A stretch of 64,000 bases of DNA from Steroidobacteraceae bacterium (GCA_035263105.1 DATFRO010000021.1:41254-105253); one strand, 5' to 3'; shown: positions 2,815 to 51,834, counted from the stretch's first letter. Numbers and translations are program-made. Notes: a model not told the origin generated them from the sequence alone.

Positions 2815-2929
2815 CGCACCTCAGGCTACCGCCCGAGGCGCGAAAGGTGAAGTGTGCTCGCGTCGCCACCCGCCGGACCGGCCCGTCAGTCCCGGAATCG
2901 GGGCCGGCCGGCGGGCAGCTTCTTTGGTA

Positions 2930-3295: not shown

Positions 3296-3366
3296 AAGCA
3301 TGTCCTCGTTTTGCAATATTTACCTGGCGGCGCCGCGTACTGGTCGGTGCCTCGCAGGGGTTGCGG

Positions 3367-3382
3367 AGCAAGGGCCATGCCA
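3367..3382 (-). promoter_or_regulatory. sigma54 (-24/-12) promoter upstream of the EF-hand gene
   Basis: Minus strand reads TGGCAT-GGCCC-TTGCT, with GG-N10-GC spacing exact. It is intergenic, about 70 nt upstream of ATG 3295, and divergent from glrK. Confidence 0.65.
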
Positions 3383-3538
3383 CGCCGGGCGAAACTACTG
3401 GCTTCAAGCGCTTAGCCGCCGCTGAGCGCCGTGCGGCGTGTGCCGCGCGCCGCCGCAGCGTCGTCAACAGGCAACGCATTTGAACCGCGGAGCGCTTTGC
3501 GCAGTCCCATTGGCGCGAGGCGTGCAGGGAATCGGGTG

Positions 3539-18019: not shown

Positions 18020-18180
18020 CGCGTGAACGCAGCCGGGACGGATGTCAGCCGACCTCCGTCCCTGCTTGCGGCTCAGTCCTACGGACGTGGCCATGCGCCA
18101 TGCGCTGAACTAGTCGCCGAAACTGCCGCAGTGTGTATTGACGCTTACCAACAGGTTCAGTAACGACCAGGAGACTTGTG

Positions 18181-18756: not shown

Positions 18757-18794
18757 TCGCGACAGCAACTCACAAAGACGATGTCGAAACTCGA

Positions 18795-18824
18795 GCCGGC
18801 GGGGTCGAAGAGGGCCCCGCCGGC
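18795..18824 (+). terminator. intrinsic-terminator-like hairpin after the BON gene
   Basis: GCCGGCGGGG (18795-18804) pairs with CCCCGCCGGC (18815-18824) and is followed by TT. Its presence argues that the AI-2E gene starts at 18886, not 18781. Confidence 0.55.
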
Positions 18825-18885
18825 TTCGACGTTATGGGGTAGCCAGCGCGTGGCGCCCGCGTCTCACGAGCCGGTGCGGGAGGGT

Positions 18886-22867: not shown

Positions 22868-23055
22868 CCGGGCTCGAGCGGGCCGACGCCTGCACGGCGA
22901 TCGACAGCACGGATTTGCCTCGCCCCCGTCCTTATGTTTAGTCTGCTCTTGCCTTTCGCGGGTGGATGCGACCCACTGGCGGGAGGGCGGGCCGACCCTG
23001 GCGGAGTTCGGCCCGTACGAAAAGACCCTCGGCATCAGAAGGGGGCTCATCGACG

Positions 23056-25503
23056 ATGAGCACACGAGCAGATCGAAGTCAGGACAAGGAACACGATACC
23101 GACAGCACGGACCAGCTGCCTGCGCTGGACGTCGCAGCCATGGAAGCTGCGCAACGCGCGGAAGAAGGGCTGAGCAGTACGGATACCTGGGTGACCGCTG
23201 GGCCCGCCGCGGCGCCCGGCAGCGCGCCCGGCGCCATCTTCGACACGATCCGCACGCTCGAAGCGAATCTTCACGCCAAGTCCGAACACACCGCGAATCT
23301 CGAACAGCTCCTGACGCGTGCCGAGCGCGAGCGCGATGCGGCCGAGCGCCGGCTGCGCGAACGCGAGCAGGCGCTGTCGCGCCTGGAACGGGAGATCGAA
23401 TCGCGCGCCACGGCCCTGAGCCACGCCGAACGCCAGCGCCAGGAAGCCGCCGAAGCGCAGCACAACGCCGAGCGCCAGGCGCGCGCGCTGGAAAAGGAGA
23501 AGGCGGATCTCCTGAGCCGCCTGACCGATCTCGAGGAGGCGCGCCGCGGGCTCGGCGCCGATCTCGACGCACGCGGCGCAACGATCGCGCTCTTCAAGAG
23601 CGACCTCGCGGCACGTGCGGAGCAGATCCGCCTGCTCGAGCAGCAGCGCGATGGGCTCGAACTGGAAAAGGTGACGCTCGCTGACACGCTGCGAGCGCGC
23701 GATGCGCGCCTCGCGTTCCTGGACACCGAGATCGCCGCGCGCAACACGCAGATGACGGAGCTCGAGGGCGTGGTCTCGGGCCGCGACGAAACGCTTGCGC
23801 ACCTGCGCGGCAAGATCGAGCAACTGCAGGGCGAAGCGCGCGGGCTGCACGAGACCATCACCTCTCGCGAGCAACACATCCAGTCGCTCGACGACTCGTT
23901 GCGCGCGAAAGAAGAAGCGCGCCTCGAACTGGCGCAGGCGCTCCAGGTCCAGGCACAGCAGGCCGCCAAGATCGATGAGACGGTGCGCGCCAATCAGCAG
24001 CAGGTCGAAAGCTGCCTGGAAGCGTTGCAGAGCCTGGAAACCCGCCGCAATTTCTACGATGGCGAGCTCTTTGTCCGCGAGCAGGAGATCGAGCGCCAAC
24101 AGGCGCACGCGACGGAACTGCAGGCGGATGTCGCGCGCCAGGCGGGCGAAGTCGGCGCCGTGCAGGTGCAGCTGCGCGAGCGCGATGCGGTCATCGTGGA
24201 ATTGAAGGCCGAAATCGCCACGCGCGATTCCGCGCTCAACGAGCGCGCCGCGGAGCTCGGCCGCCTGCGTGCGGCGACGCACGATTCGGGCGGCGTGATC
24301 GCCGACCTCGAGCGGCGCGTGAAAGCGCATGCCGCGGAGATCGTGCGCCTGCAAACCGACCTCGCCGAACGCGATGCGCGCATCGCGAAGGGACTCGACG
24401 ATCTGCGCGACGCCGCTGCGCAGGCGCGCGAGCGCGAGCAGGAACAGCATGCGCTGAAGGCCGCGGCCGATGCCCTGCGCGCACAGCTCGCCGAGCGCGC
24501 CACCGAGATCGCAGCCCTGACCGCGGCCTTGCAGGCCGAGCAGAAGCGCGGCGCCGGCTTCGAGGCGGAAGCGGCGGCACGCACGCGCACCATCGCCGAT
24601 ATCGAGAGCCGCGGACGCATGCAGAACGAGCTCGCCGAGCAGCACGTGCGCGAACTCGACACGTGGAAAGAGAAGTGGTCGACCATCGCCGCGGCGATCG
24701 GCGAGAAGGAAGCGCGCCTCGCGCAGATGGAGACCGACCTGCGGGTGAAGAGCGCGGAAGTCGCGACGCGCGCGGAGCGCATCGGCACGCTGCAGAAGAC
24801 CGTCGACGACCAGGCGGAGACGCTTGGCGCGCTCGAGAAGGAGCTGCGCGAGAAAGCGGAGAGCATCGCGCGCCTCGAAGGCGACCTGCGCGCGGCGGAA
24901 GACTCCATGTTGCGGCTCGAGTCACAACTGCGGCAGAGGGCCGACCAGGGCTCGATCGCTCAGCGCACACTGGAAGAGCAGCGCACGCAGATCCGGCATC
25001 TGCAGGACACGCTCGCCACCCGCGATTCCGCGGTTGCCCGACTGGAAGGCGAGCTCAAGGCGAGCAGCGAGATCATCGGCAACATCCAGCGCGACATCCG
25101 CCGCCTCAGCATCGAAGCGCCGCCGCCGTCGCTCCCCGCCGAGCCGGTGGTCGCGCCGGTGCGCGAGGTCCCGGTGCGCGAGCCCGTCGAACCGGCCTCC
25201 GAGTCGCTCACGCGCCTGCTGGTGCGCATCGACGGTGAGGCCGAGATCGTGCACGTCATCAACAAGAAGACCACCGCGATCGGCCGCACCGACGACAACG
25301 ACATCCAGATCGACACCAAGTACATAAGCCGCCACCACGCGCGCATCGTGATCGCCGGCACTTCCACGGTGGTCGAGGATCTCGGCAGCACCAACGGCGT
25401 GTACGTCAACGATCGTCGCGTCAGTCGCCGTCACGCGCTCGAGGATGGCGACCTGCTGATCGTCGGCAAGACGCAGTTCCGCTTCGCGGTGAAATCGAGC
25501 TGA
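23056..25503 (+). CDS. large coiled-coil protein with C-terminal FHA domain
   Basis: About 700 aa of heptad-like Glu/Arg/Ala/Leu-rich sequence, then a canonical FHA: IGRTDDNDIQIDTKYISRHHARIV ... EDLGSTNGVYVNDRRV ... LEDGDLLIVG. Confidence 0.8.
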   Translation: MSTRADRSQDKEHDTDSTDQLPALDVAAMEAAQRAEEGLSSTDTWVTAGPAAAPGSAPGAIFDTIRTLEANLHAKSEHTANLEQLLTRAERERDAAERRLREREQALSRLEREIESRATALSHAERQRQEAAEAQHNAERQARALEKEKADLLSRLTDLEEARRGLGADLDARGATIALFKSDLAARAEQIRLLEQQRDGLELEKVTLADTLRARDARLAFLDTEIAARNTQMTELEGVVSGRDETLAHLRGKIEQLQGEARGLHETITSREQHIQSLDDSLRAKEEARLELAQALQVQAQQAAKIDETVRANQQQVESCLEALQSLETRRNFYDGELFVREQEIERQQAHATELQADVARQAGEVGAVQVQLRERDAVIVELKAEIATRDSALNERAAELGRLRAATHDSGGVIADLERRVKAHAAEIVRLQTDLAERDARIAKGLDDLRDAAAQAREREQEQHALKAAADALRAQLAERATEIAALTAALQAEQKRGAGFEAEAAARTRTIADIESRGRMQNELAEQHVRELDTWKEKWSTIAAAIGEKEARLAQMETDLRVKSAEVATRAERIGTLQKTVDDQAETLGALEKELREKAESIARLEGDLRAAEDSMLRLESQLRQRADQGSIAQRTLEEQRTQIRHLQDTLATRDSAVARLEGELKASSEIIGNIQRDIRRLSIEAPPPSLPAEPVVAPVREVPVREPVEPASESLTRLLVRIDGEAEIVHVINKKTTAIGRTDDNDIQIDTKYISRHHARIVIAGTSTVVEDLGSTNGVYVNDRRVSRRHALEDGDLLIVGKTQFRFAVKSS

Positions 25504-28447: not shown

Positions 28448-31180
<2,733 letters not shown>

Positions 31181-31397
31181 CCCATGCTGCGCGGTGGCCA
31201 CTGGAGTGGTTCGCGATACTAGGGTGCCGGCAGGGTGGCTGCAATCGCAGCAACCGTGCGAGCGTCGCAATTCCTGCGCGCCTCGCTGGCGACGCACTCA
31301 TGTAACATGCGCTGCGCGCCGTGCTGAACGGAATTGATGCCGATCGGGCTGCGCAGGAGGTCGAGGGACGAACCAACGGACAGGAGAGGTACGCGCG

Positions 31398-39435: not shown

Positions 39436-41040
39436 ATGCGAAATCGCCTCATCGCCCTCTTCGTCATCGCAGCCCTGCTCGCTGCCTGCACCGGCATGCA
39501 GACCCAGGGCGGTGGCTCGTCCGGCGGATCTTCCGGCGGGTCCTCAGGCGGATCATCCGGATCCTCGGGTGGATCCTCAGGCGGTTCGTCGGGTTCCTCG
39601 GGTGGGTCTTCGGGCTCTTCGGGTGGCTCATCGGGCTCGTCAGGCGGGCAGACTGGGTCCTCCGGCGGATCGTCAGGCGGTCAGTCCGGCGGATCCTCGG
39701 GCGGCGATTCGGGTTCCTCAGGTTCTTCGGGTGGATCGGCTGGTACGGCGGGACCGCCGAGCTGGCCGAGCCCCAATGACTCCCCCAACGGCAGCTCGAA
39801 TGGCAGTGCCGGTGGGAGCGAGGGCGGCGGTAGTGATTCCCCGGGCGGCGGATCAGCAGGCACGGCAGGACCGCAGAGCTGGCCGAGCCCCAATGACTCG
39901 AGTGGCGGCAGCTCCGACGGCAGCGCTGGCGGCGGGTCCGAGGGCGGTGGATCTCAGTCCTCGACGACGTCCAGCAATGGCGGCGGCAGCAGTTCCGGCG
40001 CCGCGGGCGGCCAGGCGGGCAGTAACAGCTGGCCCTCTGGCGACAGCTCTTCGGGCGGCACCTCAGGGTCCGCGGGCGGCCAAGCCGGTGCTCAGGGCTC
40101 CGGTGGTCAGCAAGGCACGGACGGCCAGTCCGGAACGAGCGGTGGCGCCGGTGGCCCGTCAGGAAGCATGGGCGGTCAGCAAGGCGGCGGCGGCCAGCAA
40201 GGGAGCGGTGCGTCAGCGCAGTCCGCTGGAGCCGGCGGCCAGCAGGGCGCAGGTGCGGGTGGTGCCGGAGGCGCTGGTGGACAGCAGGGTGCCGGAGCCT
40301 CAGGAGCCGGAGGACAACAGGGCGCGGGCGCCGCAGGCGCCGGTGGCCAACAGGGTGCAGGTGCTGCGGGCGGTGGTCAGGCGGGCGTGAGAACCGCATC
40401 GGCCGGCGCCGGTGGCGCGATGAGTGGCGCCGGTAATGCCGGAGCGGGCGGCGTGGAGGGCCAGAACGGTGGTCCGGGACAGGGCCCCAACATGCCGGGC
40501 GGTGGCGGCGCACAGACCGATGCGGAACGCACGGCCGCTGCGAATGCGGCGATGGACGCCTCCCTCGGCGACTTCGACGAGAAGATCCGCAAGGAGCGCG
40601 AGCGGATTGCCAAGGAGCGCGATGCCGAGGCGGCGAACTCGCACGGCGCTTCCGGGGACTCGAGTGGCAGCAACGGCAGCTCGCCGGTCAGCGAAGGCGG
40701 CGGCGGCGCGGGGCGGCCCGGTGGCAATGACGGTGACCTGCGCTCCACGGGCGCAGGTTCTACGGGCGCCGGCGGCACGCCGGGCGCGGGTGGCGCATCC
40801 GGTTCTCCGGGCGGCACGAATTCTTCGGAGAAGGGCGGGCACGGTGGCGGTGGTGGCACCGGCGGCGGCGGCGGCAAAGGCGGCGGCGGCCCGAACTCCA
40901 CGCCCAAGAACATCCCGGATGGCAGTGACGATGACACGATCGCACGCCAGATTCGCGAAGCGGCGGAGAAGGAAACGGATCCGGAGCTCAGAGACAAGCT
41001 CTGGAAGGAATACATCGAGTACAAGAAGAACGCGCACTAG
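39436..41040 (+). CDS. lipoprotein with a Gly/Ser/Gln/Ala low-complexity region of about 330 aa and a charged helical C-terminal domain
   Basis: Lipobox LLAAC, GGSS-type repeats, two copies of a roughly 39-aa unit containing SAGTAGP(P/Q)SWPSPNDS, and GGQQGAGA repeats. The C-terminus is DDDTIARQIREAAEKETDPELRDKLWKEYIEYKKNAH. Confidence 0.7.
   Translation: MRNRLIALFVIAALLAACTGMQTQGGGSSGGSSGGSSGGSSGSSGGSSGGSSGSSGGSSGSSGGSSGSSGGQTGSSGGSSGGQSGGSSGGDSGSSGSSGGSAGTAGPPSWPSPNDSPNGSSNGSAGGSEGGGSDSPGGGSAGTAGPQSWPSPNDSSGGSSDGSAGGGSEGGGSQSSTTSSNGGGSSSGAAGGQAGSNSWPSGDSSSGGTSGSAGGQAGAQGSGGQQGTDGQSGTSGGAGGPSGSMGGQQGGGGQQGSGASAQSAGAGGQQGAGAGGAGGAGGQQGAGASGAGGQQGAGAAGAGGQQGAGAAGGGQAGVRTASAGAGGAMSGAGNAGAGGVEGQNGGPGQGPNMPGGGGAQTDAERTAAANAAMDASLGDFDEKIRKERERIAKERDAEAANSHGASGDSSGSNGSSPVSEGGGGAGRPGGNDGDLRSTGAGSTGAGGTPGAGGASGSPGGTNSSEKGGHGGGGGTGGGGGKGGGGPNSTPKNIPDGSDDDTIARQIREAAEKETDPELRDKLWKEYIEYKKNAH
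39508..40500 (+). repeat. coding low-complexity / tandem-repeat region (GGS, GGQQGAGA units), including a tandem duplication of about 117 nt at 39727-39960
   Basis: Read directly from the translation of 39436-41040. Synonymous codon variation between repeat units suggests the repeats are maintained at the protein level rather than arising from recent slippage. Confidence 0.8.
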
Positions 41041-41063: not shown

Positions 41064-42359
41064 ATGACGGCTCTCAGGTTCACGCATTGCGGATTCGGCC
41101 GGGCGGCAGCCGTTTCCTTCGCACTGCTGCTCCTCGCCGCGCTGTCGGGATGCGTCGTCGAGGAAACGCGGCCCCTGCCCAAGGTGCACGCGGTGCAGGC
41201 GAAAGAGGAAATTCCGGCCGACGAGCTGCTCGATGTCGGCGTACGCATCTTCGATCCGGGCATTCCACCCGAGGTGGAGACCGACCCGACGGCCCAGGAG
41301 AAAGAGGGCATCTATCCCGACGTGCGCCGCGCCGAGGCGCGCTACATGTCGATGCTGCTCCGGAACACGCTCGAGACCACGGCGCAGTGGGGCGCAGTGC
41401 GCGTGATCCCTGCGACCGCCGAGTTCGTCGATGTGCTGGTCACCGGCAAGATCGTGAAGTCCACCGGCAAGGAGCTCGAGCTCCTCATCACCGTGCGCGA
41501 TTCGACCGGCCGCACCTGGTACACGGAAAAGAAATACGAACAGGAAGCGGACCTCGGCTCCTATCTGAGCGATGCGGCGCTCAAGGCCCGCGATCCGTTC
41601 CAGAACATCTACTCGACGATCGCGAACGACATGCTCGCGTTCCGCAACACGATCCCCGAGCCCGACCGGCGCATGGTTCGGCGCGTGACCGAGATGCGCT
41701 TCGCGCAGGACCTGGCCCCGAACGCCTATTCGGACTACGTGGTGCAGGACAAGGAAGGCCGCTACACGCTCAAGCGCCTGCCCGCGGATGGCGACCCGGT
41801 GTTCGAGCGCGTGCAGAAGGTCCGCGAGCGCGACGGCGCGCTGATCGACACCGTGAGCGACTACTACGGCAACTTCTACGATCACTTGAGTGAGCCGTAC
41901 GGCAACTGGCGCCGCTACAGCTATGACGAGATCAACAAGGAAGAGAAACTGAAGTCACAGGCGCGCACGCGCATGATCATGGGTGCCGCCGCCGTGCTCG
42001 GCAGCATCCTGGTGTCTTCGCAGTGCCCGGGCTCGGACTACAACTGCCGGCGCGTTGAGAGTGCGGTGCGCACGGCCGGCACCCTCGGCGGCATCGCCGG
42101 GATCATGAGCGGCCTGAAGAAGAACGCGGATGCAAAGATTCACACTGCGGCGATCAAGGAACTCGCGACCTCGTTCCAGACGGAAGTCGCGCCACAGGTG
42201 GTCGAAGTGGAAGGTCGCACCCTCAAGCTGACCGGCACGGCCGAGGACCAGTATCGCGAGTGGCGCGAGATGCTCAAGCAGATGTATATCGAGGAAACTG
42301 GCGGCGCGACCAACACGACGATCGCCGCGGGTAGCCCGACCACTACGACACCGCGTTGA
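41064..42359 (+). CDS. lipoprotein (431 aa) with a C-terminal Gly-rich hydrophobic segment
   Basis: Lipobox AALSGC, the later hydrophobic stretches MIMGAAAVLGSILV and GTLGGIAGIMSGL, and a Thr-rich tail. No family recognised. Confidence 0.65.
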   Translation: MTALRFTHCGFGRAAAVSFALLLLAALSGCVVEETRPLPKVHAVQAKEEIPADELLDVGVRIFDPGIPPEVETDPTAQEKEGIYPDVRRAEARYMSMLLRNTLETTAQWGAVRVIPATAEFVDVLVTGKIVKSTGKELELLITVRDSTGRTWYTEKKYEQEADLGSYLSDAALKARDPFQNIYSTIANDMLAFRNTIPEPDRRMVRRVTEMRFAQDLAPNAYSDYVVQDKEGRYTLKRLPADGDPVFERVQKVRERDGALIDTVSDYYGNFYDHLSEPYGNWRRYSYDEINKEEKLKSQARTRMIMGAAAVLGSILVSSQCPGSDYNCRRVESAVRTAGTLGGIAGIMSGLKKNADAKIHTAAIKELATSFQTEVAPQVVEVEGRTLKLTGTAEDQYREWREMLKQMYIEETGGATNTTIAAGSPTTTTPR

Positions 42360-42366: not shown

Positions 42367-44685
42367 ATGCCGGGTTTGAACAGCGGGCAGCAACTGTCCG
42401 GGCGGTACAGTTTGCGCGAGCGACTCAGCGCCGGCCCGCTGGGTGAGACCTGGCGCGCACACGATTCCCAGCTCGATCGCGAAGTGGTCATCCGCCTGCT
42501 GCCGCAGGTGGCTCCCGCTGCGCTCGCGAGCGCGAACGCCGAGCTCGCGTCGGCCGAACAGCTCGATCCCGCCAGCATCGGCGCCGCGCGCAGCATCGAG
42601 CGCGATGGCGAGCAGCTCTACCTGGTTCGCGACTACGTTCCCGGCACCGATGTCTCCGCACTGCGCGCGGGCTCCTGGCGCGTCATCGCTTCCGCGGTGG
42701 CGGGAGCCGCGGACGCCCTCGCGAGGCTTCACCAGGCGGGACGCGTCCATCGCGACATCAAGCCCGGCAACATCGTGCAGCGACCGGATGGATCGGTGGC
42801 CCTCATCGATTTCGGCAACGCGGCGCTCGAGGGCGCGAACGCGCCGCACGGCGCGCTGTCGCGCTACAGCGCCAGCCCGCAACAGCTGGCCGGCGAGCCG
42901 GCGACGGCCGCCGACGATGCGTACGGCCTGGGTGCCGTGCTCTATGAGTTGTTGAGCGGCTACCCGCCGTTCTATCCGAATTTCAGCCGCGAGCGCGTGC
43001 TCTCCGAAGCGGTAGCGCCGCTCAAGCCGGCGCAGCCCGCGCCGCAGCCGCTCCTCGACCTGACCCTGCGGCTGCTGGCGAAGTCACCGGCCGAACGTCC
43101 CAGCGATCTCGCGCAGCTCGCACAGCAACTGCGTGAGCTGGTGAAGGGTGCAAACGACAGCGTCGCGAGCCCGAGCCGCGCGGCGGCCGGCTCGGATGCG
43201 GCGCCGGTCGTGACCATCGTGCGTCCGATCCTGCGTCCGGCCGCGCAAGGCGAGCGTACGAAGGCGGCGGCGGGTCCGCAGCGCCGCTGGTTGATCGGCG
43301 CCGCGTTCGCGCTGCTCGTGCTGCTCGCCCTCACGGTGCTGGTCGTGCTGCCGAGGTTCGTGCAGCGGCCGGCGGCCACGAGCACTGCACCCACCACCGC
43401 GAAGACTGCGCCCGCGCCCAAGCCTGCAGAGCCCGTCGAACCGGACCTGCGCACGCTCGCCGAGCAGATGCAGGAGGCCGAGCAGGTGCGCGACCAGTAC
43501 GACTCGCTCTACGAGTCGCTCGACAAGCGCGCCGTGAAAGAGTGGGCGCCGCAGCCCTTTGCCGCTGCGACCCACCACGGCGAAGAGGCGCGCAAGCACT
43601 ACTCCGTGCGCGAGTTCAAGGAATCAAAGGACGCGTACACCGCCGGCCTCGAAGAGCTGCGCAAGGCCGACGCGCTCGCCGAGCCGACGCTGCGCACGCA
43701 GATCGAAAAAGGCGAAGCCGCCCTCGTCGCCGGCCAGTCGGCCGCCGCACAAGCAGCCTTCACGCTCGCACTCAAGATCGATCCCGCGAACGCCGCTGCG
43801 ACCAGGGGCCTCAAGCGCGCGGGCACGCTCGACCAGGTGAACGCATTGCTGGCTAATGCGGCGAGCGCGGAGCGCACCGGCCAGCTGCCGCTCGCTGTGC
43901 AGCAGTTCGAAGAAGCCCTCAAGCTCGATCCCGACACGACAGCGGCGCGCGATGGCGCCGCACGCGTGCGTGCGCGCATCTCCGGCGACCAGTTCGCGGC
44001 CGCGATGTCGCAGGGGCTGGCACAACTTTCGGCGGGCAAGCTCGACGCGGCACGCGCGGCGTTCGAGCGTGCCAAGGGCATTCGCCCGAACGCACCGGAA
44101 GTGACCGATGCCTTGAACCAGGTCGCGCAGCAGCAGACCACGCTCACCATCGCGCAGCGTCGCGAGCAGGGAGAAAAGTTCGAGCACATCGAGCGCTGGG
44201 ATCTCGCCGTGGCCCAATACGATGCGGCCCTGAAGCTCGATCCGGGTCTCGAGTTCGCGCTCGCGGGCCGTGCCCGTGCCGCTCCGCGCGCGGAAATGGC
44301 CCAGCAGCTCGATGCGGTCATCAAGCAGCCGGAGCGGCTCCTCTCGGCCTCGGTGCGCGAGCAAACCAAGGCCTTGGTGGCGGCGGCGAACAAGGTCGAT
44401 CCGCAGGGCCCGCTGCTGCGCCAGCAGGTGACGACGGTGACCGCGAGCCTCGCCCAGTTCGAGGCGCCGGTGCGCATCGCGCTGGAATCGGATAACCAGA
44501 CGCAGGTGGTGATTCACCGCGTCGGTCAGCTCGGCATGTTCGACCACCGTGAGATCGACCTGCAGCCGGGCACTTACACGGTGATGGGAACCCGGGTCGG
44601 GTATCGCGATGTCCGCCGCGAGATTACAGTGATACCCGGGAAGGCACTCCCGCCCCTCATCGTGCGCTGCGAGGACCGCATTTGA
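42367..44685 (+). CDS. atypical Ser/Thr kinase-like protein: kinase domain - TM - TPR repeats - C-terminal PEGA-like domain
   Basis: HRDIKPGNIV and DFG are present. The Gly-loop is degenerate (SAGPLGE) and the VAIK lysine is replaced (VVIRLL). TM: WLIGAAFALLVLLALTVLVVL. TPR-like repeats follow, ending with PGTYTVMGTRVGYRDVRREITV. Confidence 0.8.
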   Translation: MPGLNSGQQLSGRYSLRERLSAGPLGETWRAHDSQLDREVVIRLLPQVAPAALASANAELASAEQLDPASIGAARSIERDGEQLYLVRDYVPGTDVSALRAGSWRVIASAVAGAADALARLHQAGRVHRDIKPGNIVQRPDGSVALIDFGNAALEGANAPHGALSRYSASPQQLAGEPATAADDAYGLGAVLYELLSGYPPFYPNFSRERVLSEAVAPLKPAQPAPQPLLDLTLRLLAKSPAERPSDLAQLAQQLRELVKGANDSVASPSRAAAGSDAAPVVTIVRPILRPAAQGERTKAAAGPQRRWLIGAAFALLVLLALTVLVVLPRFVQRPAATSTAPTTAKTAPAPKPAEPVEPDLRTLAEQMQEAEQVRDQYDSLYESLDKRAVKEWAPQPFAAATHHGEEARKHYSVREFKESKDAYTAGLEELRKADALAEPTLRTQIEKGEAALVAGQSAAAQAAFTLALKIDPANAAATRGLKRAGTLDQVNALLANAASAERTGQLPLAVQQFEEALKLDPDTTAARDGAARVRARISGDQFAAAMSQGLAQLSAGKLDAARAAFERAKGIRPNAPEVTDALNQVAQQQTTLTIAQRREQGEKFEHIERWDLAVAQYDAALKLDPGLEFALAGRARAAPRAEMAQQLDAVIKQPERLLSASVREQTKALVAAANKVDPQGPLLRQQVTTVTASLAQFEAPVRIALESDNQTQVVIHRVGQLGMFDHREIDLQPGTYTVMGTRVGYRDVRREITVIPGKALPPLIVRCEDRI

Positions 44686-47108
44686 GTCTTGCCCTGCGTC
44701 TGCGTGAGCCCCTCGGCGAACGCGCCATCTCGGCCAACGATCTGCCCCTTGCCCTCGGCGGCGAGGGCGCGAGTCTTGCCGTTCCCGGCGTGCCGCCAGG
44801 CGTGACCGCCGCCTACATCGGCTTCGACGAGCAGACCCCATACATCGAAGCCGTGGCGGACTCGGGCATCCCCGTGCTGCTCAACGGCCGCGCGCTGCGC
44901 GAACGCACGCCGCTCCTGCATGGCGATGTGATCCGCCTCGGCGATGCGCAGATCCTGTGCGCGGCGCGCGCCGGCACCGTCAACCTCGAGGTGATCCACC
45001 AGGAAGGCAACCAGACGCAGCCGCCGATCGTCGATCCGTCCGAGCAGGAGGAAGAGGTCGAGCTCGCGCCCGACTCGCAGGCGATCCGCCGCGTGGCGTT
45101 CAAGCCCGTGCTCGCGCCGCGCCAGCAGGTGCGGCGCAGTGCGACGCCCCAGCGCATCGGCCTCACCGCCGGCCTCACGGTGCTGTTCCTCGCGCTCTTC
45201 TACCTGGTGACGGCGAAGCCCCTGATCCTTGTCATCGACCCGCCCGACGCGAAGCTCGACTTCCGCGGCACGACGTTCGACTTCCGCGCCGGCGATCGCG
45301 TGCTCATGCGCCCGGGCAACTACAGCGTGGTCGCAACGCGCGCGGGCTACGAAACCGCGCAGCTCCCCGTGCACTTCAAGGGCGACAAGGGCGAGCAACT
45401 GAAGATCCGCCTCGCCAAGCTCCCCGGGCAGATCCACATCGACACGAATGGTGTGGCGGGCACGCTCAGCATCGACGGCAAGCCCGTCGGGCCCGTGCCG
45501 GGCGACTACCCGGTGACCGCCGGCAAACGGGAATTTCGCATCAGCGCGCCGCGCTACGAGGACTTCGCCGCGGCCGTGGAAGTGAAGGGTCTCGGCGAGA
45601 AACAGCGTGTCAACGCAAAGCTCAAGCCTGCGTTCAGTCCGGTGACGATCGAGTCCGAACCCGCGGGCGCGGCCGTCGCACTGGATGGCAAGGACCTCGG
45701 CGTGACGCCCCTGACAGTGCCGATCGATGCCGGCAGCTACTCGCTCACCCTCACGGCTGCGGGCTTTCGGCGCTGGGAGAGCTCGATCCAGGTGAAGGCG
45801 GACGCGCCGCAGAAGATCGGCCCGGTGAAGCTGGGCCTGCCGGATGGCGTTTTGCTGGTGCGCTCCACGCCCTCGCAGGCCGACGTCAATATCGGCGGCC
45901 GTTACCGCGGCCGCACGCCGCTCGACGTGAGTCTCGCGCCGGGTGTGCAGTACGAAGTGGTCGTGAGTCACTCGGGCTATGAAGACGGGCGGCGCGCCGT
46001 GCCCTCGAAGCCGGGAGAGCGGTCGGCGGTCGAGATGACCCTCAAGCCGATTCTCGGCGACGTCACGATTCGCGGCGATCCCGCGGATGCGCAGCTCTTC
46101 GTCGACGGCCAGCCGCGCGGGCCGGCCAACCAGACGATCGGGCTGCCCTCGACCGAGCTCTCGATCGAGATCCGTCGCGAGGGCTACCAGCCGTTTGCGA
46201 CCAAGGTCGTGCCGCAGCCGGGCCTCACGCGCGTGCTCGAATACCGCCTGCTCACGCCCGAGCAGGTGCGCCAGGCGCGCATTCCGCCGGTGATCCGCAC
46301 GCACACGGGCGGGCAGCTGCGCCGCATACCGACGGGCCATTACGTGATGGGCAGTTCACGCCGCGAGCCGGGCCGGCGCACCAACGAAGTCGAGCACGAA
46401 GTGGTGTTGCAGCGGCAGTTCTATGTGGGCGTATACGAAGTGACGAACGCCGAGTTCCGCCAATTCCAGCCCGAGCATTTGTCGGGCGTGGTGCGCGACC
46501 GCTCGCTCGACCAGGATGATCACCCGGTCGTCAACGTGACCTGGAATGATGCCGCGGCCTACTGCAATTGGCTGAGCGGGCAGGATGGACTCCCGCCTGC
46601 GTACACACAGCAGGGGGATACGTACGTGTTGGCGAAGCCGGTCACCACCGGATACCGCTTGCCGACCGAAGCGGAGTGGGAATGGGCCGCGCGCTACGAG
46701 AACGGACAGGCCACCCGGCGCTATCCCTGGGGCGCCTCGCTCCCGGTCCCGGAGAATTCAGGGAACTTTGCCGACAAACGGGCGCTCGCAGTCAACGCTA
46801 CCGCCGTAGAGAACTATGAGGACGGATTCGTGACCACGGCCCCGGTGGGCAAGTTTCCGGCAAGCCCGCTCGGGCTGTACGACATCGGCGGGAACGTGAC
46901 CGAATGGGTCCATGATTTCTACACTGTGTATCCGGAAGGGTCACCGATGACGACCGACCCGCTGGGACCCGACTCGGGGCCCCAGCACGTCGTGCGCGGT
47001 TCGAGCTGGCGCAGCGCCAATGTGGCGGAGCTGCGCCTGGCGTGGCGCGAACACGCGGACGGCAAGGCGCAACACATCGGCTTCCGGATTGCGAGGTACG
47101 CTGAATGA
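44682..47108 (+). CDS. FHA-like domain - TM - five PEGA-like domains - formylglycine-generating-enzyme (FGE/SUMF1) type domain
   Basis: N-terminus ...VLLNGRALRERTPLLHGDVIRLGDAQI (divergent FHA). TM: IGLTAGLTVLFLALFYLV. Repeated units end in GYETA, RYEDF, GFRRW, GYEDG and GYQPF. The C-terminus has HPVVNVTWNDAAAYCNWLS ... YRLPTEAEWEWAAR ... GNVTEWVHDFY ... RGSSW ... GFRIAR. Confidence 0.8.
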   Translation: MSLALRLREPLGERAISANDLPLALGGEGASLAVPGVPPGVTAAYIGFDEQTPYIEAVADSGIPVLLNGRALRERTPLLHGDVIRLGDAQILCAARAGTVNLEVIHQEGNQTQPPIVDPSEQEEEVELAPDSQAIRRVAFKPVLAPRQQVRRSATPQRIGLTAGLTVLFLALFYLVTAKPLILVIDPPDAKLDFRGTTFDFRAGDRVLMRPGNYSVVATRAGYETAQLPVHFKGDKGEQLKIRLAKLPGQIHIDTNGVAGTLSIDGKPVGPVPGDYPVTAGKREFRISAPRYEDFAAAVEVKGLGEKQRVNAKLKPAFSPVTIESEPAGAAVALDGKDLGVTPLTVPIDAGSYSLTLTAAGFRRWESSIQVKADAPQKIGPVKLGLPDGVLLVRSTPSQADVNIGGRYRGRTPLDVSLAPGVQYEVVVSHSGYEDGRRAVPSKPGERSAVEMTLKPILGDVTIRGDPADAQLFVDGQPRGPANQTIGLPSTELSIEIRREGYQPFATKVVPQPGLTRVLEYRLLTPEQVRQARIPPVIRTHTGGQLRRIPTGHYVMGSSRREPGRRTNEVEHEVVLQRQFYVGVYEVTNAEFRQFQPEHLSGVVRDRSLDQDDHPVVNVTWNDAAAYCNWLSGQDGLPPAYTQQGDTYVLAKPVTTGYRLPTEAEWEWAARYENGQATRRYPWGASLPVPENSGNFADKRALAVNATAVENYEDGFVTTAPVGKFPASPLGLYDIGGNVTEWVHDFYTVYPEGSPMTTDPLGPDSGPQHVVRGSSWRSANVAELRLAWREHADGKAQHIGFRIARYAE

Positions 47109-47521
47109 ACACGCCCATCAGAGACTCCACACGAACACCGCGCCGTTACCCGGCGGCGTGGATCACGCTCGCGCTCCTGGCGCTCGCACCGGTTGGTGCG
47201 CTGGTGTCACAGGATGCGCCCAAGCCCGCGACGCCGGAGGAAGGAGCACCGGCTGCGAAGGAAGCACCGCCGGCCGCAAAGAAGACGCCGGCGTCAAAGC
47301 CCGCGGCGGACTCCACCAAGCCCGCTGCTGATTCGACCAAGGCCTCCACTGCGAAAGCGCCTGCCGCGGGTGCTGACAAAGGCGAGGCCGGCAAAGCGCC
47401 AGCCAACGGCGAGCAGGCCGACAAGGGCGACGACATCGACAAGTCGCAGGCTCCTACCATCTTCGTTCCAACCCAGAAAACATCGGCAGACAACAGTGCA
47501 ACATTCCCGATCGACATCTGA
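47105..47521 (+). CDS. membrane-anchored or secreted Ala/Pro/Lys-rich protein (TolA/TonB-spacer-like)
   Basis: N-terminal hydrophobic helix AAWITLALLALAPVGALV, then KPATPEEGAPAAKEAPPAAKKTPASKPAADSTKPAADSTK.... Third-position GC supports this frame over the overlapping Arg-rich frame. Confidence 0.65.
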   Translation: MNTPIRDSTRTPRRYPAAWITLALLALAPVGALVSQDAPKPATPEEGAPAAKEAPPAAKKTPASKPAADSTKPAADSTKASTAKAPAAGADKGEAGKAPANGEQADKGDDIDKSQAPTIFVPTQKTSADNSATFPIDI

Positions 47522-48353
47522 AGCCTCCGCGCCAGCCCCGGCTGCGCGCGCGACGCCACGCAGCTCTCAGCAGAGCGAGTTCCTCTTCAGCACCTTCGCG
47601 TTGATCATCACCGCGATCCTGGTGCATGCGCTCTACGTGGTGCACATCCGCCCGCGCGGCGACGCCATCATGGCCGAGCAGTTCGCGAAGATGCGCGTCC
47701 AGGCCAACTACGTGCCGGAGCGCTCGATCTACATCGTGGTGCACGAGTACGAGCCCGAGGTGTGCATCATCCTGATGATCTGGTCGCTGATCCTGCTGGG
47801 TCATCGCATGGTCGACAATCGCGCACAGCGCAAGCTCCTGGCATCGGGACTGCTCAACATCCCGCCGGGCATGCGCATCCTGCCGAAGGACACGCGCGAG
47901 TACGCGCGACAGATGGAAGCGCTCGATCCCAAGACCCAGGAGCTGCTCCTGCCGCGCGCGATCGTGGCATCGCTCGAGCGCTTCGGCTCGACCGACAACA
48001 TCCATGACGCCGCCGAGGCGGGCCGCGCGGTGTGCGAGTCCGAGGCCGAGCGTCTCGACTCCGAGCTCTCGATGGTGCGCTACACGGTGTGGGCGATTCC
48101 CGCCATCGGGTTCGTCGGCACGGTGCGCGGTATCGGCGCGGCGCTCCAGCAGGCGCACCAGGCGGTGTCCGGGAACATCAGTGGCGTCACCGAAGCGCTC
48201 GGCATCACCTTCAACGCCACGTTCACCGCGCTCACCTCGAGCATCATCGTGATGTTCTTCCTGCACCAGCTGCAGCTCGCACAGGAACGCATGGTGCTCG
48301 ATACCTCGAGCTACCTGGACCAGCATCTGCTGCGGCACATGCGCGCGTCCTGA
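47496..48353 (+). CDS. MotA/TolQ/ExbB-family proton-channel protein (3-TM ExbB/TolQ topology)
   Basis: TM1 FLFSTFALIITAILVHALYVV, a long cytoplasmic loop, then IPAIGFVGTVRGIGAAL ... GVTEALGITFNATFTALTSSIIVMFFLH, which parallels P-IGL-GTV-GI ... GIAEAL ... of ExbB/TolQ. No in-frame ATG precedes TM1, so the GTG at 47496 is proposed as the start (uncertain). Confidence 0.75.
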   Translation: MQHSRSTSEASAPAPAARATPRSSQQSEFLFSTFALIITAILVHALYVVHIRPRGDAIMAEQFAKMRVQANYVPERSIYIVVHEYEPEVCIILMIWSLILLGHRMVDNRAQRKLLASGLLNIPPGMRILPKDTREYARQMEALDPKTQELLLPRAIVASLERFGSTDNIHDAAEAGRAVCESEAERLDSELSMVRYTVWAIPAIGFVGTVRGIGAALQQAHQAVSGNISGVTEALGITFNATFTALTSSIIVMFFLHQLQLAQERMVLDTSSYLDQHLLRHMRAS

Positions 48354-48379: not shown

Positions 48380-49750
48380 GTGAGCAGGGGTGCCATCGAG
48401 ATCAACGACGCCGGCGTGCTCGTCGCCGTCGATGGTGTCGTGCGGCAATCGAGTCCCGGCTACGCGTTGCTCGATCGCGAGCCCACCGTGGTGGGCGAAC
48501 CGGCGCTGCACGCCGCGCGCATCGAGCCGCTCAACATCAACAATCGCTTCTGGAACGAGCTCGACGAGCGGCCGCTCCTGGTGCGCGCCGCCGCCGGACG
48601 CTCGCATGCGGATCTCGCGTACCTGCACCTCGCGCACATCTGGCGCGACCTTGCCGAGCCGCCGCAGGCCGTGCGCTTCGCGGTGCCGGCGACGTTGCGC
48701 CCGCAACAGCTGGCGCTCCTCCTCGGGATCGCGCGGGAAGCGCGTGTGCCGGTGGCCGGGTTCGTCGACACGGCCGTCGCGCTGGCCAGCACTGCGCCCG
48801 ATAGCGGCCGGCTGCTCTACGTCGATGTCCATTTGCACCACACGGTGATCACCGCAGTCGCCGTCGGCGAGCGCGCACGCCGTGAGCGCTCCGAGCTCGC
48901 GCGCAATGCGGGCTGGCTCGCATTCACCGACACGTGGTTGAGCATGGTCGGCCGCGAGTTCGTGGCGCGCACCCGCTTCGATCCGCTGCATCGCGCCGCC
49001 GTCGAGCAGCAGTTGTTCGACGCGTTGCCCGGCTGGCTCGAGCAGCTGCAGACGAGCGATGCGATCGAGATCGAGCTGCCGTTCGAGGGCGAGACGCATT
49101 CGGTGCGGCTCACGCGCGAGCAATTCGCGCTCGAGGCCGACGGTCTCTACACGGAGCTCCTGATGCGCGTGCATCGGCTGCGCACGCCGGGCCACGCGAC
49201 CACCATCGTGCTCGGCGACCGCGCCGCACTGTTGCCCGGGCTCGCGCAACGCTTTGCCGAATTCAACGACTGCAACGTGGTGCGCAGCTCCCCGGGCGCC
49301 GCCGTGATTGCCGCCGCCGCGCTCGACGGCGAGGCGACGGGCGATGACACCGTGCAACTGCTATGCGCGACGCCGCGTCTCGATGCGGGGATCACGCGCC
49401 TGCCGTGGAAGAGCCTGCAGGATGCGCGCCCGGCGGATGTCGTGGCCGCGCCTTCGCACCTTTTGTATCGGGGGCAGGCCGTGGCACTCGGTCCCGAACC
49501 GTTGCACATCGGTCTCGCCCCGCCGCGCGATCGCGGCCCGGCGCTCAGCGTGGTCGGCGCCGCGGCCGGTGTGTCACGCCTGCATTGTTCGGTGTTGCGC
49601 CTGCCGAGCGGCGCCGTGGTCGTCGATCACAGCCGCTACGGCACCTGGCTCAACGACGAGCGGGTCTTCGGCCGCGCGACGCTGCGCGCCGGCGATCGCC
49701 TGCGGCTCGGCCGCCCGGGCGTGACACTCGAGCTGATCACTTCGGGCTGA
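48380..49750 (+). CDS. degenerate Hsp70/actin-like (ASKHA) domain protein with C-terminal FHA domain
   Basis: The ordered motif analogues are AIEINDAG (phosphate 1), FAVPA, GFVDTAVALAS (compare IINEPTAAA), LLYVDVHLHHTVITAV (compare DLGGGTFDV), IVLGDRAALLPGL (compare LVGGSTRIP) and PGAAVIAAAAL. The FHA is GVSRLHCSV ... DHSRYGTWLNDERV ... LRAGDRLRLG. A GTG start is proposed (uncertain). Confidence 0.65.
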   Translation: MSRGAIEINDAGVLVAVDGVVRQSSPGYALLDREPTVVGEPALHAARIEPLNINNRFWNELDERPLLVRAAAGRSHADLAYLHLAHIWRDLAEPPQAVRFAVPATLRPQQLALLLGIAREARVPVAGFVDTAVALASTAPDSGRLLYVDVHLHHTVITAVAVGERARRERSELARNAGWLAFTDTWLSMVGREFVARTRFDPLHRAAVEQQLFDALPGWLEQLQTSDAIEIELPFEGETHSVRLTREQFALEADGLYTELLMRVHRLRTPGHATTIVLGDRAALLPGLAQRFAEFNDCNVVRSSPGAAVIAAAALDGEATGDDTVQLLCATPRLDAGITRLPWKSLQDARPADVVAAPSHLLYRGQAVALGPEPLHIGLAPPRDRGPALSVVGAAAGVSRLHCSVLRLPSGAVVVDHSRYGTWLNDERVFGRATLRAGDRLRLGRPGVTLELITSG

Positions 49751-49753: not shown

Positions 49754-50854
49754 ATGCCGCGCAATCGCCGCCACACCGAAGTGTTCACGATGTCGTTCCT
49801 CGACTGCATCTGCTGCGGTTTCGGCGCGGTCGTGCTCGTGTACGTGATCATCAGCGCGACTGCGGGCGTCACCCGCGTGCACCAGGACGACGACCTCAAG
49901 GGCGAGGTCAACAAGCTCGAGGAGCAGGTGCTCGAGGGCTACAAGAACCTGGTCGTGTTGCGCAACACGACGCAGGTGACCACCAGCCAGTCGAGCAAGG
50001 CCTCCGGGCGCATCGCGCAGATCCTCGAGGAGCTGGAGAAGACGCGCGTCGAGCTCTCGACCTACACCGGCGACACGCTCTCGAAGCAGGAGCACATCAA
50101 CCAGCTCAAGTCCGACATCCGCGCGCTGGAAGAGGGCAACCGGCGCCTGGAAGCGGGCTCGAAGGACGTCGCCGAAGCCGGGCAGAACGTGCGCGCCTTC
50201 AAAGGCACCGGCAACCGGCAATACCTCACCGGCATCACGGTCACCGGCAAGCACGTGCTCATCCTCATCGACATGTCGGCGAGCATGCTCGATGAGACGC
50301 TGGTCAACATCCTGCGCATGCGCAACCTCCCGGACATCCAGAAGATGCTCGCGCCGAAGTGGCAGCGCGCGGTCTCGACCGTCGACTGGCTGACGACGCA
50401 GATTCCGCCCGACAGCGAATTCCAGGTGTACGCGTTCAACACCGAAGCGCACTCGATGATCGAGGGGAGCGACGGCAAGTGGCTCAAGGCGACCGACCCG
50501 CGTCCGCTCAACGCCGCGGTGGCAAAGCTCAGGCACACGCCGCCGCACGACGGCACGAGTCTCATCAATGCGTTCAACGCCGCAAAGACGCTCGATCCAC
50601 TGCCCGACCAGATCCTGCTGATCACCGATGGGCTCCCGACGCAGGGCGCGACCGCGCCCGCGATCCGCAAGGCGGTGGAAGTCGAGCAGCGCGCGAAGCT
50701 CTTCGATCAGTCGCTGGGGGCGCTGCCGCCGCACGTGCCCGTGAGCACCATCCTGATGCCGATGGAAGGCGATCTGCCGGCGCCCGCGCGCTTCTGGCGC
50801 CTGGCGCGTGAGACCGGCGGTGTCTTCATGATGCCGGCGAAGGACTGGCCATGA
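49754..50854 (+). CDS. ExbD/TolR-like N-terminal TM (with Asp) - coiled coil - vWA domain protein, paralog 1
   Basis: N-terminus MPRNRRHTEVFTMSFLDCICCGFGAVVLVYVI (compare TolR EINIVPLLDVLLVLLLIF), about 110 aa of coiled coil, and a vWA with MIDAS DMSAS ... GTS ... ITDG. Confidence 0.75.
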   Translation: MPRNRRHTEVFTMSFLDCICCGFGAVVLVYVIISATAGVTRVHQDDDLKGEVNKLEEQVLEGYKNLVVLRNTTQVTTSQSSKASGRIAQILEELEKTRVELSTYTGDTLSKQEHINQLKSDIRALEEGNRRLEAGSKDVAEAGQNVRAFKGTGNRQYLTGITVTGKHVLILIDMSASMLDETLVNILRMRNLPDIQKMLAPKWQRAVSTVDWLTTQIPPDSEFQVYAFNTEAHSMIEGSDGKWLKATDPRPLNAAVAKLRHTPPHDGTSLINAFNAAKTLDPLPDQILLITDGLPTQGATAPAIRKAVEVEQRAKLFDQSLGALPPHVPVSTILMPMEGDLPAPARFWRLARETGGVFMMPAKDWP

Positions 50855-51834
50855 AGCTCAAGCGCCACACCACCGAAGTCTTCAGCATGTCGTTCCTCGA
50901 CTGCATCTGCTGCGGCTTCGGCGCGATGATCCTGATCCTGGTGCTCACCGAGACCGGCCAGCCGATCGTGCTGGAGAAAGTGCGCACCGACATGCACGGC
51001 CAGGTGGCGAAGTTGCAAGCCGAGCTCTACGAGATCCGCGGCGAGACCGACATCCTCAACCGCGACCTGAAGGGCCGCATCGAGCAGCTGTCACTCGAGA
51101 AGAGCAAGCTCGCGAAACTGCAGGGCGACCTGAGCACCGTCAAGGGCCAGTACCAGAGCAGCCAGAAGGAATCGGAGATCGAGAATACCGAGGAGGGACA
51201 GCTCGTATCCGCGTACCAAAAGCTGACCGACGAGATGGAACGGCTCCTCAAGGCCGGCTACCACCGCCCGAAGAATTCCGCCATCGGCGGCATCCCCGTC
51301 GACAGTGAGTACATAATCTTCGTGGTCGACACGTCGGGCAGCATGCAAGAGAATCACTGGGACCAGGCGCGCAAGATGATGGAGGAAATCCTCGACATCT
51401 ACCCGCACGTCAAGGGCATCCAGGTGATGGACGACGAAGGCGCTTACATGTTCGATGGCTATCGCGGCCAGTGGATCGCGGACACGCCCGCGCGGCGCAA
51501 GGCGATCATGGACCGCTTCAAGACCTGGACCTCGTTCAGCAACTCGAACCCGGTCGAAGGGTTGCTTGCGGCCGTGCGCACGTTCTGGGCCCCGGACAAG
51601 AAAGTGAGCGTCTATTACTTCGGCGACGACTTCCCCGGCGAGTCGATCCAGGCCGTGCTCGACCAGATCGATCGCGCCAATCACAGCGAGAGCGGCGAGC
51701 GCCGCGTGCGCATTCACGCCATCGGCTTCCCGATGCCGCCGCGCGCGCCGCAATTCGGCAACACGCGCTACAGCGCGCTGATGCGCCAGGTGTGCGAGAG
51801 GAACGGCGGCACCTTCGTCGGCATGGAAAGCTGA
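50851..51834 (+). CDS. ExbD/TolR-like N-terminal TM (with Asp) - coiled coil - vWA domain protein, paralog 2
   Basis: N-terminus MKLKRHTTEVFSMSFLDCICCGFGAMILILVL is nearly identical to paralog 1. A coiled coil follows, then a vWA with MIDAS DTSGS. ATGA overlap with paralog 1. Confidence 0.75.
   Translation: MKLKRHTTEVFSMSFLDCICCGFGAMILILVLTETGQPIVLEKVRTDMHGQVAKLQAELYEIRGETDILNRDLKGRIEQLSLEKSKLAKLQGDLSTVKGQYQSSQKESEIENTEEGQLVSAYQKLTDEMERLLKAGYHRPKNSAIGGIPVDSEYIIFVVDTSGSMQENHWDQARKMMEEILDIYPHVKGIQVMDDEGAYMFDGYRGQWIADTPARRKAIMDRFKTWTSFSNSNPVEGLLAAVRTFWAPDKKVSVYYFGDDFPGESIQAVLDQIDRANHSESGERRVRIHAIGFPMPPRAPQFGNTRYSALMRQVCERNGGTFVGMES

Follow-up and report, generated by a model that had tools for sequence, protein, structure and literature searches.

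Two bitopic proteins are constant partners of a TolQ-like/paired-vWA motor and probably carry a clade-specific kinase and FHA relay in Steroidobacteraceae

Introduction

In the H1 type VI secretion system (T6SS) of Pseudomonas aeruginosa, the FGE-sulfatase domain of TagR acts on PpkA, a Hanks kinase whose phosphorylation of Fha1 leads to T6SS assembly (PMC13713981). Another envelope machine, a TolQ-like motor with paired trans-pore-helix von Willebrand factor A (TPH-vWA) proteins, has been predicted in silico, its core being a TolQ-like pentamer with two vWA proteins that carry an Asp in their transmembrane helix and serve as axle (Mol Biol Evol 2025, PMC12204202). Here we analyse a gene pair at positions 42367-47108 of a 64,000-nucleotide (nt) stretch of DNA from Steroidobacteraceae bacterium (GCA_035263105.1 DATFRO010000021.1:41254-105253), hereafter the window, that encodes a Hanks kinase-like protein of 772 amino acids (aa) and a partner of 808 aa ending in an FGE domain. 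Full-text literature searches for this domain combination gave no description of the pair. Both proteins are established below as constant partners of the TolQ-like/vWA motor, which is widespread (about 10% of sampled gammaproteobacterial genomes, 31 of the 40 genera of the window's family).

The TagQ/TagR/TagST-PpkA-PppA-Fha1 pathway (PMC13713981) is the closest worked-out signalling analogue. Shared with it are a bitopic Hanks kinase with a periplasmic domain, a non-enzymatic FGE-fold partner, an adjacent lipoprotein, the involvement of vWA domains and a cytoplasmic FHA reader, which here too would control the assembly of an envelope machine. Unlike in the Tag pathway, the FGE protein of the window is membrane-anchored and has an FHA fold and five PEGA repeats, the periplasmic part of the kinase is TPR plus a PEGA-like domain rather than vWA, no PP2C, TagST or T6SS genes appear among the Pfam and NCBIfam matches of the operon or in a PP2C_2 search of the contig, the output is a TolQ-like/vWA motor and the periplasmic parts occur without the kinase in most lineages; the locus is not a member of the TagQRST-PpkA-PppA-Fha1 system. 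The core described in PMC12204202 is present in the window as a TolQ-like gene and two heterologous vWA genes with the transmembrane Asp, with no tolR/exbD, but that paper mentions no kinase, FGE/PEGA, TPR, ASKHA-FHA or lipoprotein partners, and the two genes are therefore undescribed partners of the predicted motor.

Three further comparisons concern single domains. In type IX secretion, PorK/GldK with GldLM (PorLM) provides a Cys-less FGE fold as periplasmic structural partner of a 5:2 proton motor, the arrangement that we propose here, and the best-scoring named relatives of the partner's FGE domain are indeed GldK/PorK in NCBIfam and FGE and PorK chains in the PDB. The NCBIfam score (122.7 bits) nevertheless lies far under the 350-bit cut-off, PorK is an outer-membrane lipoprotein whereas the FGE protein here is an inner-membrane bitopic protein, and no GldL, GldM or GldN homologue is present. 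The partner is built like the YscD/PrgH class of type III secretion systems (T3SS) and EssC of type VII secretion, with an N-terminal cytoplasmic FHA fold lacking a phosphothreonine (pThr) pocket, a transmembrane helix and periplasmic repeats; Foldseek matches of this fold include EssC and a T3SS protein (ranks 40, 42, 48), but the likeness is one of fold only, with no sequence relationship, and the periplasmic modules (PEGA, FGE) and the machine differ. Finally, Arg at the VAIK Lys position of the kinase fold, as in the 772-aa protein, is found in KSR1, which retains ATP binding and for which a scaffold or allosteric role has been proposed, and in the bacterial ActPs2 family (bSTK atlas, bioRxiv 2025.01.12.632604); ActPs2 also lacks the HRD and DFG Asp, whereas here the other catalytic residues are intact and the change lies within one genus of a canonical family.

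Results and discussion

Constant periplasmic parts and a clade-specific cytoplasmic module

The pair lies within a co-directional plus-strand gene run from about 38.6 to 52.9 kb of the window (G+C 66-70%). Its coordinates and reading frames are those given by the initial annotation, made from the sequence alone, and the 4-nt overlap that it pointed out is kept in 51/56 orthologous loci, with a TTG start of the second gene in 52/56. The argument turns on the following elements:

42367..44685, plus strand: gene of the bitopic 772-aa protein (open reading frame; Pfam Pkinase 5.8e-22, TPR_2 4.6e-11; 120 full-length homologues), with cytoplasmic Hanks kinase domain, transmembrane helix, periplasmic TPR region and PEGA-like end domain
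42388..43131, plus strand: kinase domain, aa 8-255 (alignment to PknA, PknB and StkP; column counts over 121 homologues)
44682..44685, plus strand: TTGA overlap, the TTG start of the second gene on the TGA stop of the first (sequence; GAGGA 6 nt upstream)
44682..47108, plus strand: gene of the bitopic 808-aa protein (open reading frame, Pfam), with cytoplasmic FHA fold, linker, transmembrane helix, five PEGA repeats and Cys-less FGE/C-type-lectin-fold domain
44682..45005, plus strand: N-terminal FHA-fold domain of the partner, aa 1-108, without the canonical GR, SxxH and N residues for pThr (AlphaFold2 model, Foldseek, alignment)
45009..45026, plus strand: N-x-T112-x-P-P motif (NQTQPP) with the candidate phospho-acceptor Thr112 at 45015-45017 (invariant in orthologue alignments)
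48380..49750, plus strand: ASKHA-like protein with C-terminal FHA domain (49445-49747) carrying GVSRLHC and DHSRYGT, the putative pThr reader (Pfam FHA 1.2e-7)

For an unbiased sample, 400 evenly drawn gammaproteobacterial genomes were searched with the second vWA protein (vWA2) as query, the kinase and FHA domains being ignored in the selection. The cassette was present in 38 of the 400 genomes (32 genera), and scanning these loci with profiles from each domain left 28 assessable cassettes. TPR-PEGA and PEGA5-FGE orthologues occurred in all 28, the kinase domain in only three (the window and loci L115 and L140); in the 25 outside the window's clade both periplasmic parts are present and no kinase domain is found anywhere in the locus. 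Both genes are constant partners of the TolQ-like/paired-vWA motor core, and their periplasmic parts belong to the machine everywhere. The T-x-P-P motif of the partner and the G-x-S-x-x-H-C signature of the ASKHA-like protein were found in 3/3 kinase-bearing and 0/25 kinase-less cassettes; the kinase domain, the invariant Thr motif and the pThr-type reader of this one clade come and go together and form one module. The partner's FHA fold itself mostly tracks the kinase domain, the kinase-less loci L113 and L114 keeping the fold without T-x-P-P. An ASKHA-like protein is encoded in 15 of the 25 kinase-less cassettes, where its last 100 aa or so still show an FHA-like NG...GD pattern, with neither G-x-S-x-x-H-C nor D-H-S-x-x-G-T. 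The kinase-less locus L136 keeps a high-scoring FHA domain in which the key Ser is Ala, which hints at loss of the kinase domain; the vWA2 tree is not reliably rootable owing to one very long branch (L023).

Thr112 stands directly behind the partner's FHA fold and is invariant in 35/35 and 59/59 aligned orthologues. The fold itself is well defined by an AlphaFold2 model of the N-terminal 112 aa built from 35 orthologues (pLDDT 86.5), whose best 50 Foldseek matches in the PDB are all FHA domains (TM-scores 0.5-0.62), and by hhalign to the FHA domain of the ASKHA-like protein (88.7%); the match to Pfam FHA (PF00498; E 0.08, 13.8 bits) stays below the cut-off of 20.7. With GG in place of GR and no conserved Ser-x-x-His, this domain is probably not a pThr reader. 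For the FHA domain of the ASKHA-like protein, in which S399 and H402 are invariant and whose signature is found only alongside the kinase domain, a role as phospho-reader is well supported by these motifs. Of three FHA modules initially proposed to read phospho-Thr, the one at 48380 has therefore gained the co-variation of its SxxH with the kinase domain, while that at 44682 has a real fold but lacks the pThr residues; the third, encoded in trans at 22966-25503, has the canonical residues but no place in the conserved cassette.

A side observation concerns a Steroidobacteraceae subclade (L020, L023, L032, L033, L044, L046, L068 and relatives) in which the partner's N-terminus is shortened to about 92 aa: the NG...GD half of the FHA fold is lost and N-x-T-x-P-P retained.

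A proposed relay on the motor's stalk subunits

We propose that the pair would be two bitopic inner-membrane stalk subunits of an envelope machine built from a TolQ/ExbB-like proton channel and two proteins with transmembrane Asp, coiled coil and vWA domain, the TPR-PEGA protein and the five-PEGA stalk with its lectin-fold head forming a scaffold-like or stator-like, periplasm-spanning part. In the Steroidobacteraceae-centred clade a signalling layer would have been placed on the cytoplasmic N-termini (the kinase; the FHA fold with N-x-T-x-P-P; the SxxH of the reader). The kinase domain may phosphorylate a cassette protein, most likely at Thr112 of its translationally coupled partner, and the resulting pThr would recruit the FHA domain of the ASKHA-like protein and so set motor assembly or activity. 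Taken as a whole, the reading of the pair as structural stalk subunits that carry a lineage-specific kinase-to-pThr-to-FHA relay is the one we favour, with some reserve.

Several points weigh against it. FHA domains usually favour Ile, Leu, Val or Asp at pT+3, and here +3 is an invariant Pro, which weakens our inference that Thr112 is the acceptor. The reader's FHA domain passes the Pfam cut-off, yet Leu follows the conserved Gly where Arg is canonical, and the Asn of the S-x-N-G turn is Tyr. A K-to-R change at the VAIK Lys, such as that of the 772-aa protein, is a classic kinase-dead mutation. A PP2C gene in the neighbourhood of the cassette was seen at only one of about 95 loci (L026). Most lineages have the machine without the kinase, so the relay is dispensable for the motor's core function. 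The co-variation of kinase, T-x-P-P and SxxH may stem from one or two evolutionary events and is therefore weaker than the raw counts, and the larger locus set, whose 63 assessable loci all have a kinase domain, was picked through the FHA motif itself.

A bolder form, which we put forward tentatively, is that a Tol/Exb-type 5:2 proton motor would be gated by a built-in eukaryote-like relay on its own structural subunits, the first such case: the kinase domain of the TPR-PEGA stalk would mark Thr112 on the FGE stalk, a pseudo-ATPase with Hsp70/actin fold would read the mark through its FHA domain and so switch the motor, and in the window's genus the catalytic kinase would have turned into a nucleotide-binding Arg43 switch with reader and acceptor kept. 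In either form a testable hypothesis results of who phosphorylates, who is the substrate and who reads, for which Lys-type, Arg-type and kinase-less cassettes are natural comparison sets, the Lys type being available in cultured Steroidobacter and Peristeroidobacter.

Two other candidates for parts of the relay were dropped. At L026:13897-15255 (minus strand) an FHA-GAF-SpoIIE (PP2C-type) phosphatase gene is convergent to the end of a Vicinamibacteria cassette, but it recurs in no other fetched locus. A Thr in the vWA proteins' cytoplasmic tails (HTEVF), considered as phospho-acceptor, is not conserved in Acidobacteriota or in L115. As first noted, the window holds no PP2C gene: there is no PP2C_2 match on its contig, and three PP2C_2 genes lie on other contigs of the genome.

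Periplasmic domains: structural ruler or ligand sensor

The membrane-spanning and periplasmic features of the two proteins are:

43288..43350, plus strand: predicted transmembrane helix of the 772-aa protein, aa 308-328, WLIGAAFALLVLLALTVLVVL (read from sequence; position conserved in the family alignment)
43399..44436, plus strand: periplasmic TPR-rich region, aa 345-690 (Pfam TPR_2, TPR_1, TPR_8, TPR_11)
44437..44682, plus strand: C-terminal PEGA-like beta-sandwich, aa 691-772 (matched by hhalign to PEGA repeats of the partner)
45084..45107, plus strand: juxtamembrane motif (I/V)-x-P/R-x-x-(F/Y)-x-P of the partner (IRRVAFKP), kept also in kinase-less cassettes (alignments)
45156..45215, plus strand: predicted transmembrane helix of the partner, aa 159-178 (sequence; position conserved)
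45228..46262, plus strand: five PEGA-type beta-sandwich repeats, aa 183-527 (Pfam PEGA 1.5e-47, 159.8 bits, four stretches; CarboxypepD_reg at 209-244)
46323..47096, plus strand: FGE-sulfatase (C-type-lectin-fold) domain without catalytic Cys pair, residues 548-805 (Pfam PF03781 4.1e-51, 174.5 bits)
46995-47024, plus strand: stretch equivalent to the catalytic Cys region of FGE, RGSSWRSANV (alignment to human FGE)

Basic residues precede the transmembrane helix of the 772-aa protein, and its N-terminus is therefore predicted to be cytoplasmic. The TPR and PEGA domains that had been placed outside the membrane fared differently: the TPR region passes the Pfam cut-offs, and a profile of it retrieves kinase-less orthologues at E 1e-25 to 1e-87, while the last 82 aa give CarboxypepD_reg at 7.5e-4 and PEGA only below threshold (E 0.066), with hhalign pairing them to the partner's repeat 1 at 95.5% and repeat 4 at 91.9% probability. 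On the partner, the five PEGA-like domains and the FGE domain are as initially described, four of the repeats being matched as PEGA and the fifth as CarboxypepD_reg-like, and the five-repeat profile aligns end to end in most cassettes. The stalk is shorter in the lineages of L127-L129 (small genomes, 1.7-2.0 Mb), where of the five repeats only the last two are matched by the FGE protein and the TPR region has shrunk considerably.

We take the catalytic pair of human FGE to be Cys336/Cys341 (human numbering). Human FGE matches the partner's domain at 4e-27 with its two catalytic Cys aligned to Ser and Val (2aii), and every well-aligned orthologue has one Cys per FGE domain. A catalytic FGE is ruled out by the absence of the Cys pair from all readable orthologues. 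Across the family the domain is thus a variant for binding or structure, which answers in favour of a binding-only variant a check that the initial annotation had called for.

A non-catalytic FGE domain would also suit a pair that is mainly a periplasmic sensor of ligand or damage, of the TagQ/TagR/PpkA kind, in which an envelope ligand bound by the FGE head, PEGA or TPR dimerises the kinase and the motor genes are the output; a conserved lipoprotein gene directly upstream, the TagR-PpkA precedent and the obligate adjacency with translational coupling fit such a sensor as well. What makes it doubtful is that the periplasmic parts are equally conserved in the 25 cassettes without kinase, T-x-P-P and pThr-type FHA, so that their primary role cannot be feeding a kinase, that the conserved length of the five-PEGA stalk suggests a structural ruler, and that NCBIfam ranks the ring-forming GldK/PorK first for the FGE domain. 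Joint periplasmic ligand recognition, as first proposed for the pair, is thus plausible but too narrow for parts that are universal in the motor cassette even without a kinase domain, and they are therefore structural first and sensory second in appearance.

An old and constrained arginine at the VAIK lysine position

The active-site features of the kinase domain are:

42493..42495, plus strand: CGC codon of Arg43, at the invariant beta3 (VAIK) Lys position (aligned to the Lys of PknA VAVK)
42748-42771, plus strand: HRDIKPGN (kinase-domain alignment)
42808-42816, plus strand: DFG (kinase-domain alignment)
42874-42885, plus strand: SPQQ at the APE position (kinase-domain alignment)

Residues 15-250 match Pfam Pkinase with E 5.8e-22 (78.8 bits, cut-off 31.7) and M. 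tuberculosis PknA with 3.7e-25 (HMMER), confirming a Hanks kinase homologue that keeps HRD and DFG as initially read. VVIRLL falls on VAVKVL of PknA, so the suggested kinase alignment, once run, places Arg43 on the beta3 Lys. The alphaC Glu59, D130, K132, N135, D148 and Arg244 of subdomain XI are present, and the columns of E59, D130, K132, N135 and D148 are conserved in 115-121 of the 121 homologues. The Gly loop (SAGPLG), which had been called degenerate, has lost only its first Gly, to Ser; SPQQ is present in place of APE as claimed, but as a sign of a pseudokinase it is a trait of the whole family (Gln in 117/121). Both SPQQ and the Gly-loop Ser occur in Lys-bearing relatives (the Ser in Lys-bearing sister clades), so neither is tied to the loss of the Lys. 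The activation segment of this kinase family (42808-42885 in the window, and orthologues) is short and usually without Thr, and in Steroidobacter orthologues DFG is separated from the conserved G-S by only about 6 residues; because of this, regulation through activation-loop phosphorylation seems unlikely in the family.

Over 121 full-length homologues, the beta3 position is Lys in 104 and Arg in 16, the Arg-bearing ones being the window's nearest relatives (identity at least 58%) and one separate case, P0022, an apparently independent K-to-R change within the Lys-bearing sister clade. In the vWA2 tree, the window groups with five species-level relatives in a single clade (6 rows, support 100/99); the Arg clade, of genus level, has a single origin. 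Its codons are CGC, CGG and CGA (AAG elsewhere), and this variety of CGN codons argues that the change is old and that Arg itself is maintained. A compensating lysine of the WNK type, which the initial annotation had named as the finding that would undo its pseudokinase idea, was sought and is absent: the N-lobe holds 0-1 Lys, none conserved among the homologues, and with WNK-like rescue excluded the K-to-R change stands. Two single sequences stand apart, P0017 with Arg together with HLD instead of HRD, and P0009 of the Arg clade, whose Gly loop reads GPLGKTW, a Lys directly following its third Gly.

Relaxed selection or decay is ruled out by three measures. For the kinase domain, the pairwise ratio of nonsynonymous to synonymous substitution rates (dN/dS) spans 0.09-0.25 among Arg-clade members, a Lys clade giving 0.12-0.20 and the periplasmic half 0.10-0.22; the ratio of kinase to periplasm divergence is 1.07 in the Arg clade and 0.71-1.29 in two Lys clades; and no more than three positions of the domain, N5, R43 and L230, set the Arg clade apart. 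With dN/dS as in Lys clades, the domain is not decaying and is under normal constraint, making the Arg43 clade a clean natural experiment on K-to-R at VAIK with the rest of the active site held by selection. The alternatives first offered, a pseudokinase or scaffold or else an atypical enzyme, come out of this with a real and uncompensated substitution but a domain for which an atypical enzyme or ATP-binding switch is as good a description as a dead scaffold. We read the Arg43 domain as a functional low-activity kinase or ATP-binding switch rather than a relic, because Arg is old and under selection and all the remaining catalytic residues persist, as do Thr112 and the SxxH of the reader. The retention of Thr112 and of the reader's Ser and His in the Arg genus argues that phospho-signalling still runs there, in which case either Arg43 would keep some activity or another kinase would write the mark.

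The second of these options leads to a true pseudokinase in this genus, with phosphotransfer abolished by Arg43, a KSR-like scaffold or allosteric dimerisation role, and the pThr written in trans, for example by the kinase encoded at 28448-31297. Arg at the VAIK Lys without compensating Lys, the canonical Hanks kinase 11 kb from the pair and a cassette that functions without a kinase domain in most lineages all accord with it, and the 772-aa protein falls under the bSTK atlas's operational pseudokinase definition, which asks for loss of the VAIK Lys, the HRD Asp or the DFG Asp, goes by sequence only and is silent on activity. A pure scaffold, though, would not need D130, K132, N135, D148 and E59, which are kept across dS of about 1 at dN/dS 0.09-0.25, the clade-specific positions are R43 and two peripheral ones only, and the neighbouring kinase lies outside the conserved cassette; we regard a true pseudokinase as possible but unlikely. 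Most improbable in our judgement is a kinase fully active despite Arg43, the substitution being near-neutral in an unusual active site (short activation loop, SPQQ), for while the charge, the alphaC Glu, strong purifying selection, the second K-to-R of P0022 and the retained reader and acceptor motifs can be cited for it, 104 of 121 homologues keep Lys, and in nearly every kinase examined K-to-R costs orders of magnitude of activity.

The cassette, its neighbours and its distribution

The remaining genes of the cassette, and two genes elsewhere in the window that bear on the wiring, are:

39436-41040, plus strand: lipoprotein gene, preceding the pair and conserved with it
41064..42359, plus strand: lipoprotein gene directly upstream of the pair (tblastn, about 75 loci including Acidobacteriota and kinase-less lineages; kept in every complete cassette)
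47496..48353, plus strand: TolQ/ExbB/MotA-like channel gene (Pfam MotA_ExbB 1.3e-10; conserved in the loci)
49754..51834, plus strand: two paralogous genes for proteins with transmembrane helix with Asp (SFLDCICCGFGA, ExbD-like), coiled coil and vWA domain, the motor's predicted axle (Pfam VWA_2; N-terminal alignment)
22966-25503: coiled-coil FHA protein, fully canonical (GR, SRHH, STNG), outside the conserved cassette
28448-31297, minus strand: second kinase, TPR type, outside the conserved cassette

This second kinase is fully canonical, as had been stated (GRGGMG, VAIK, HRDLKPSN, DFG, SPE). The placement of the pair at the front of its operon was wrong, the two lipoprotein genes preceding it. 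Downstream of the pair there are also a gene for a small Ala/Pro/Lys-rich secreted protein and, after the vWA genes, a lipoprotein gene. No operon protein matches ExbD/TolR in Pfam or NCBIfam.

The order lipoprotein C-terminus, lipoprotein, kinase, FGE protein, channel, ASKHA-FHA, vWA1, vWA2 was found in about 60 loci, counting only those with enough flank, among them loci on multi-megabase contigs of four to five Acidobacteriota (Vicinamibacteria, Marinacidobacterales), which lack the Steroidobacteraceae flanks (radical SAM gene, first and last lipoprotein genes, convergent TPR-TonB_C gene). ASKHA-FHA orthologues occur in 464 species-representative genomes. In the window's family the cassette marker is present in 99/151 genomes and 31/40 genera, almost always as a single copy, and cultured strains of Steroidobacter and Peristeroidobacter carry the Lys-type cassette. 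An anti-phage defence system was considered and rejected: PADLOC gives only generic kinase-domain matches (PD-T4-6, mad6) and none for the other genes, and a defence island is unlikely because of the single copy, the conserved synteny and the spread over the genera of the family.

Within the lipoprotein encoded at 39436-41040, the last ~45 aa (residues 486-531) alone are conserved across cassettes, kinase-less ones included, and its long Gly/Ser/Gln spacer is lineage-specific. Orthologues of the 808-aa protein were found in all cassettes examined except the three-gene locus L116 (G391:C6:112400-131300), a bare gammaproteobacterial channel-vWA1-vWA2 trio whose upstream 11 kb or so contain none of the TPR-PEGA, FGE, lipoprotein and ASKHA genes. 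L124 (G257:C51:42300-61200) is rearranged, the TolQ-like gene standing after vWA2 (at about 14038) and not before the gene of the ASKHA-like protein. Around the kinase-less cassette of L144 (G484:C1:2295500-2314400), a Hanks kinase is encoded separately 5 kb downstream and an FHA protein 4 kb upstream (18032-18901 / 1843-3645); the congeneric L141 has neither in the same span.

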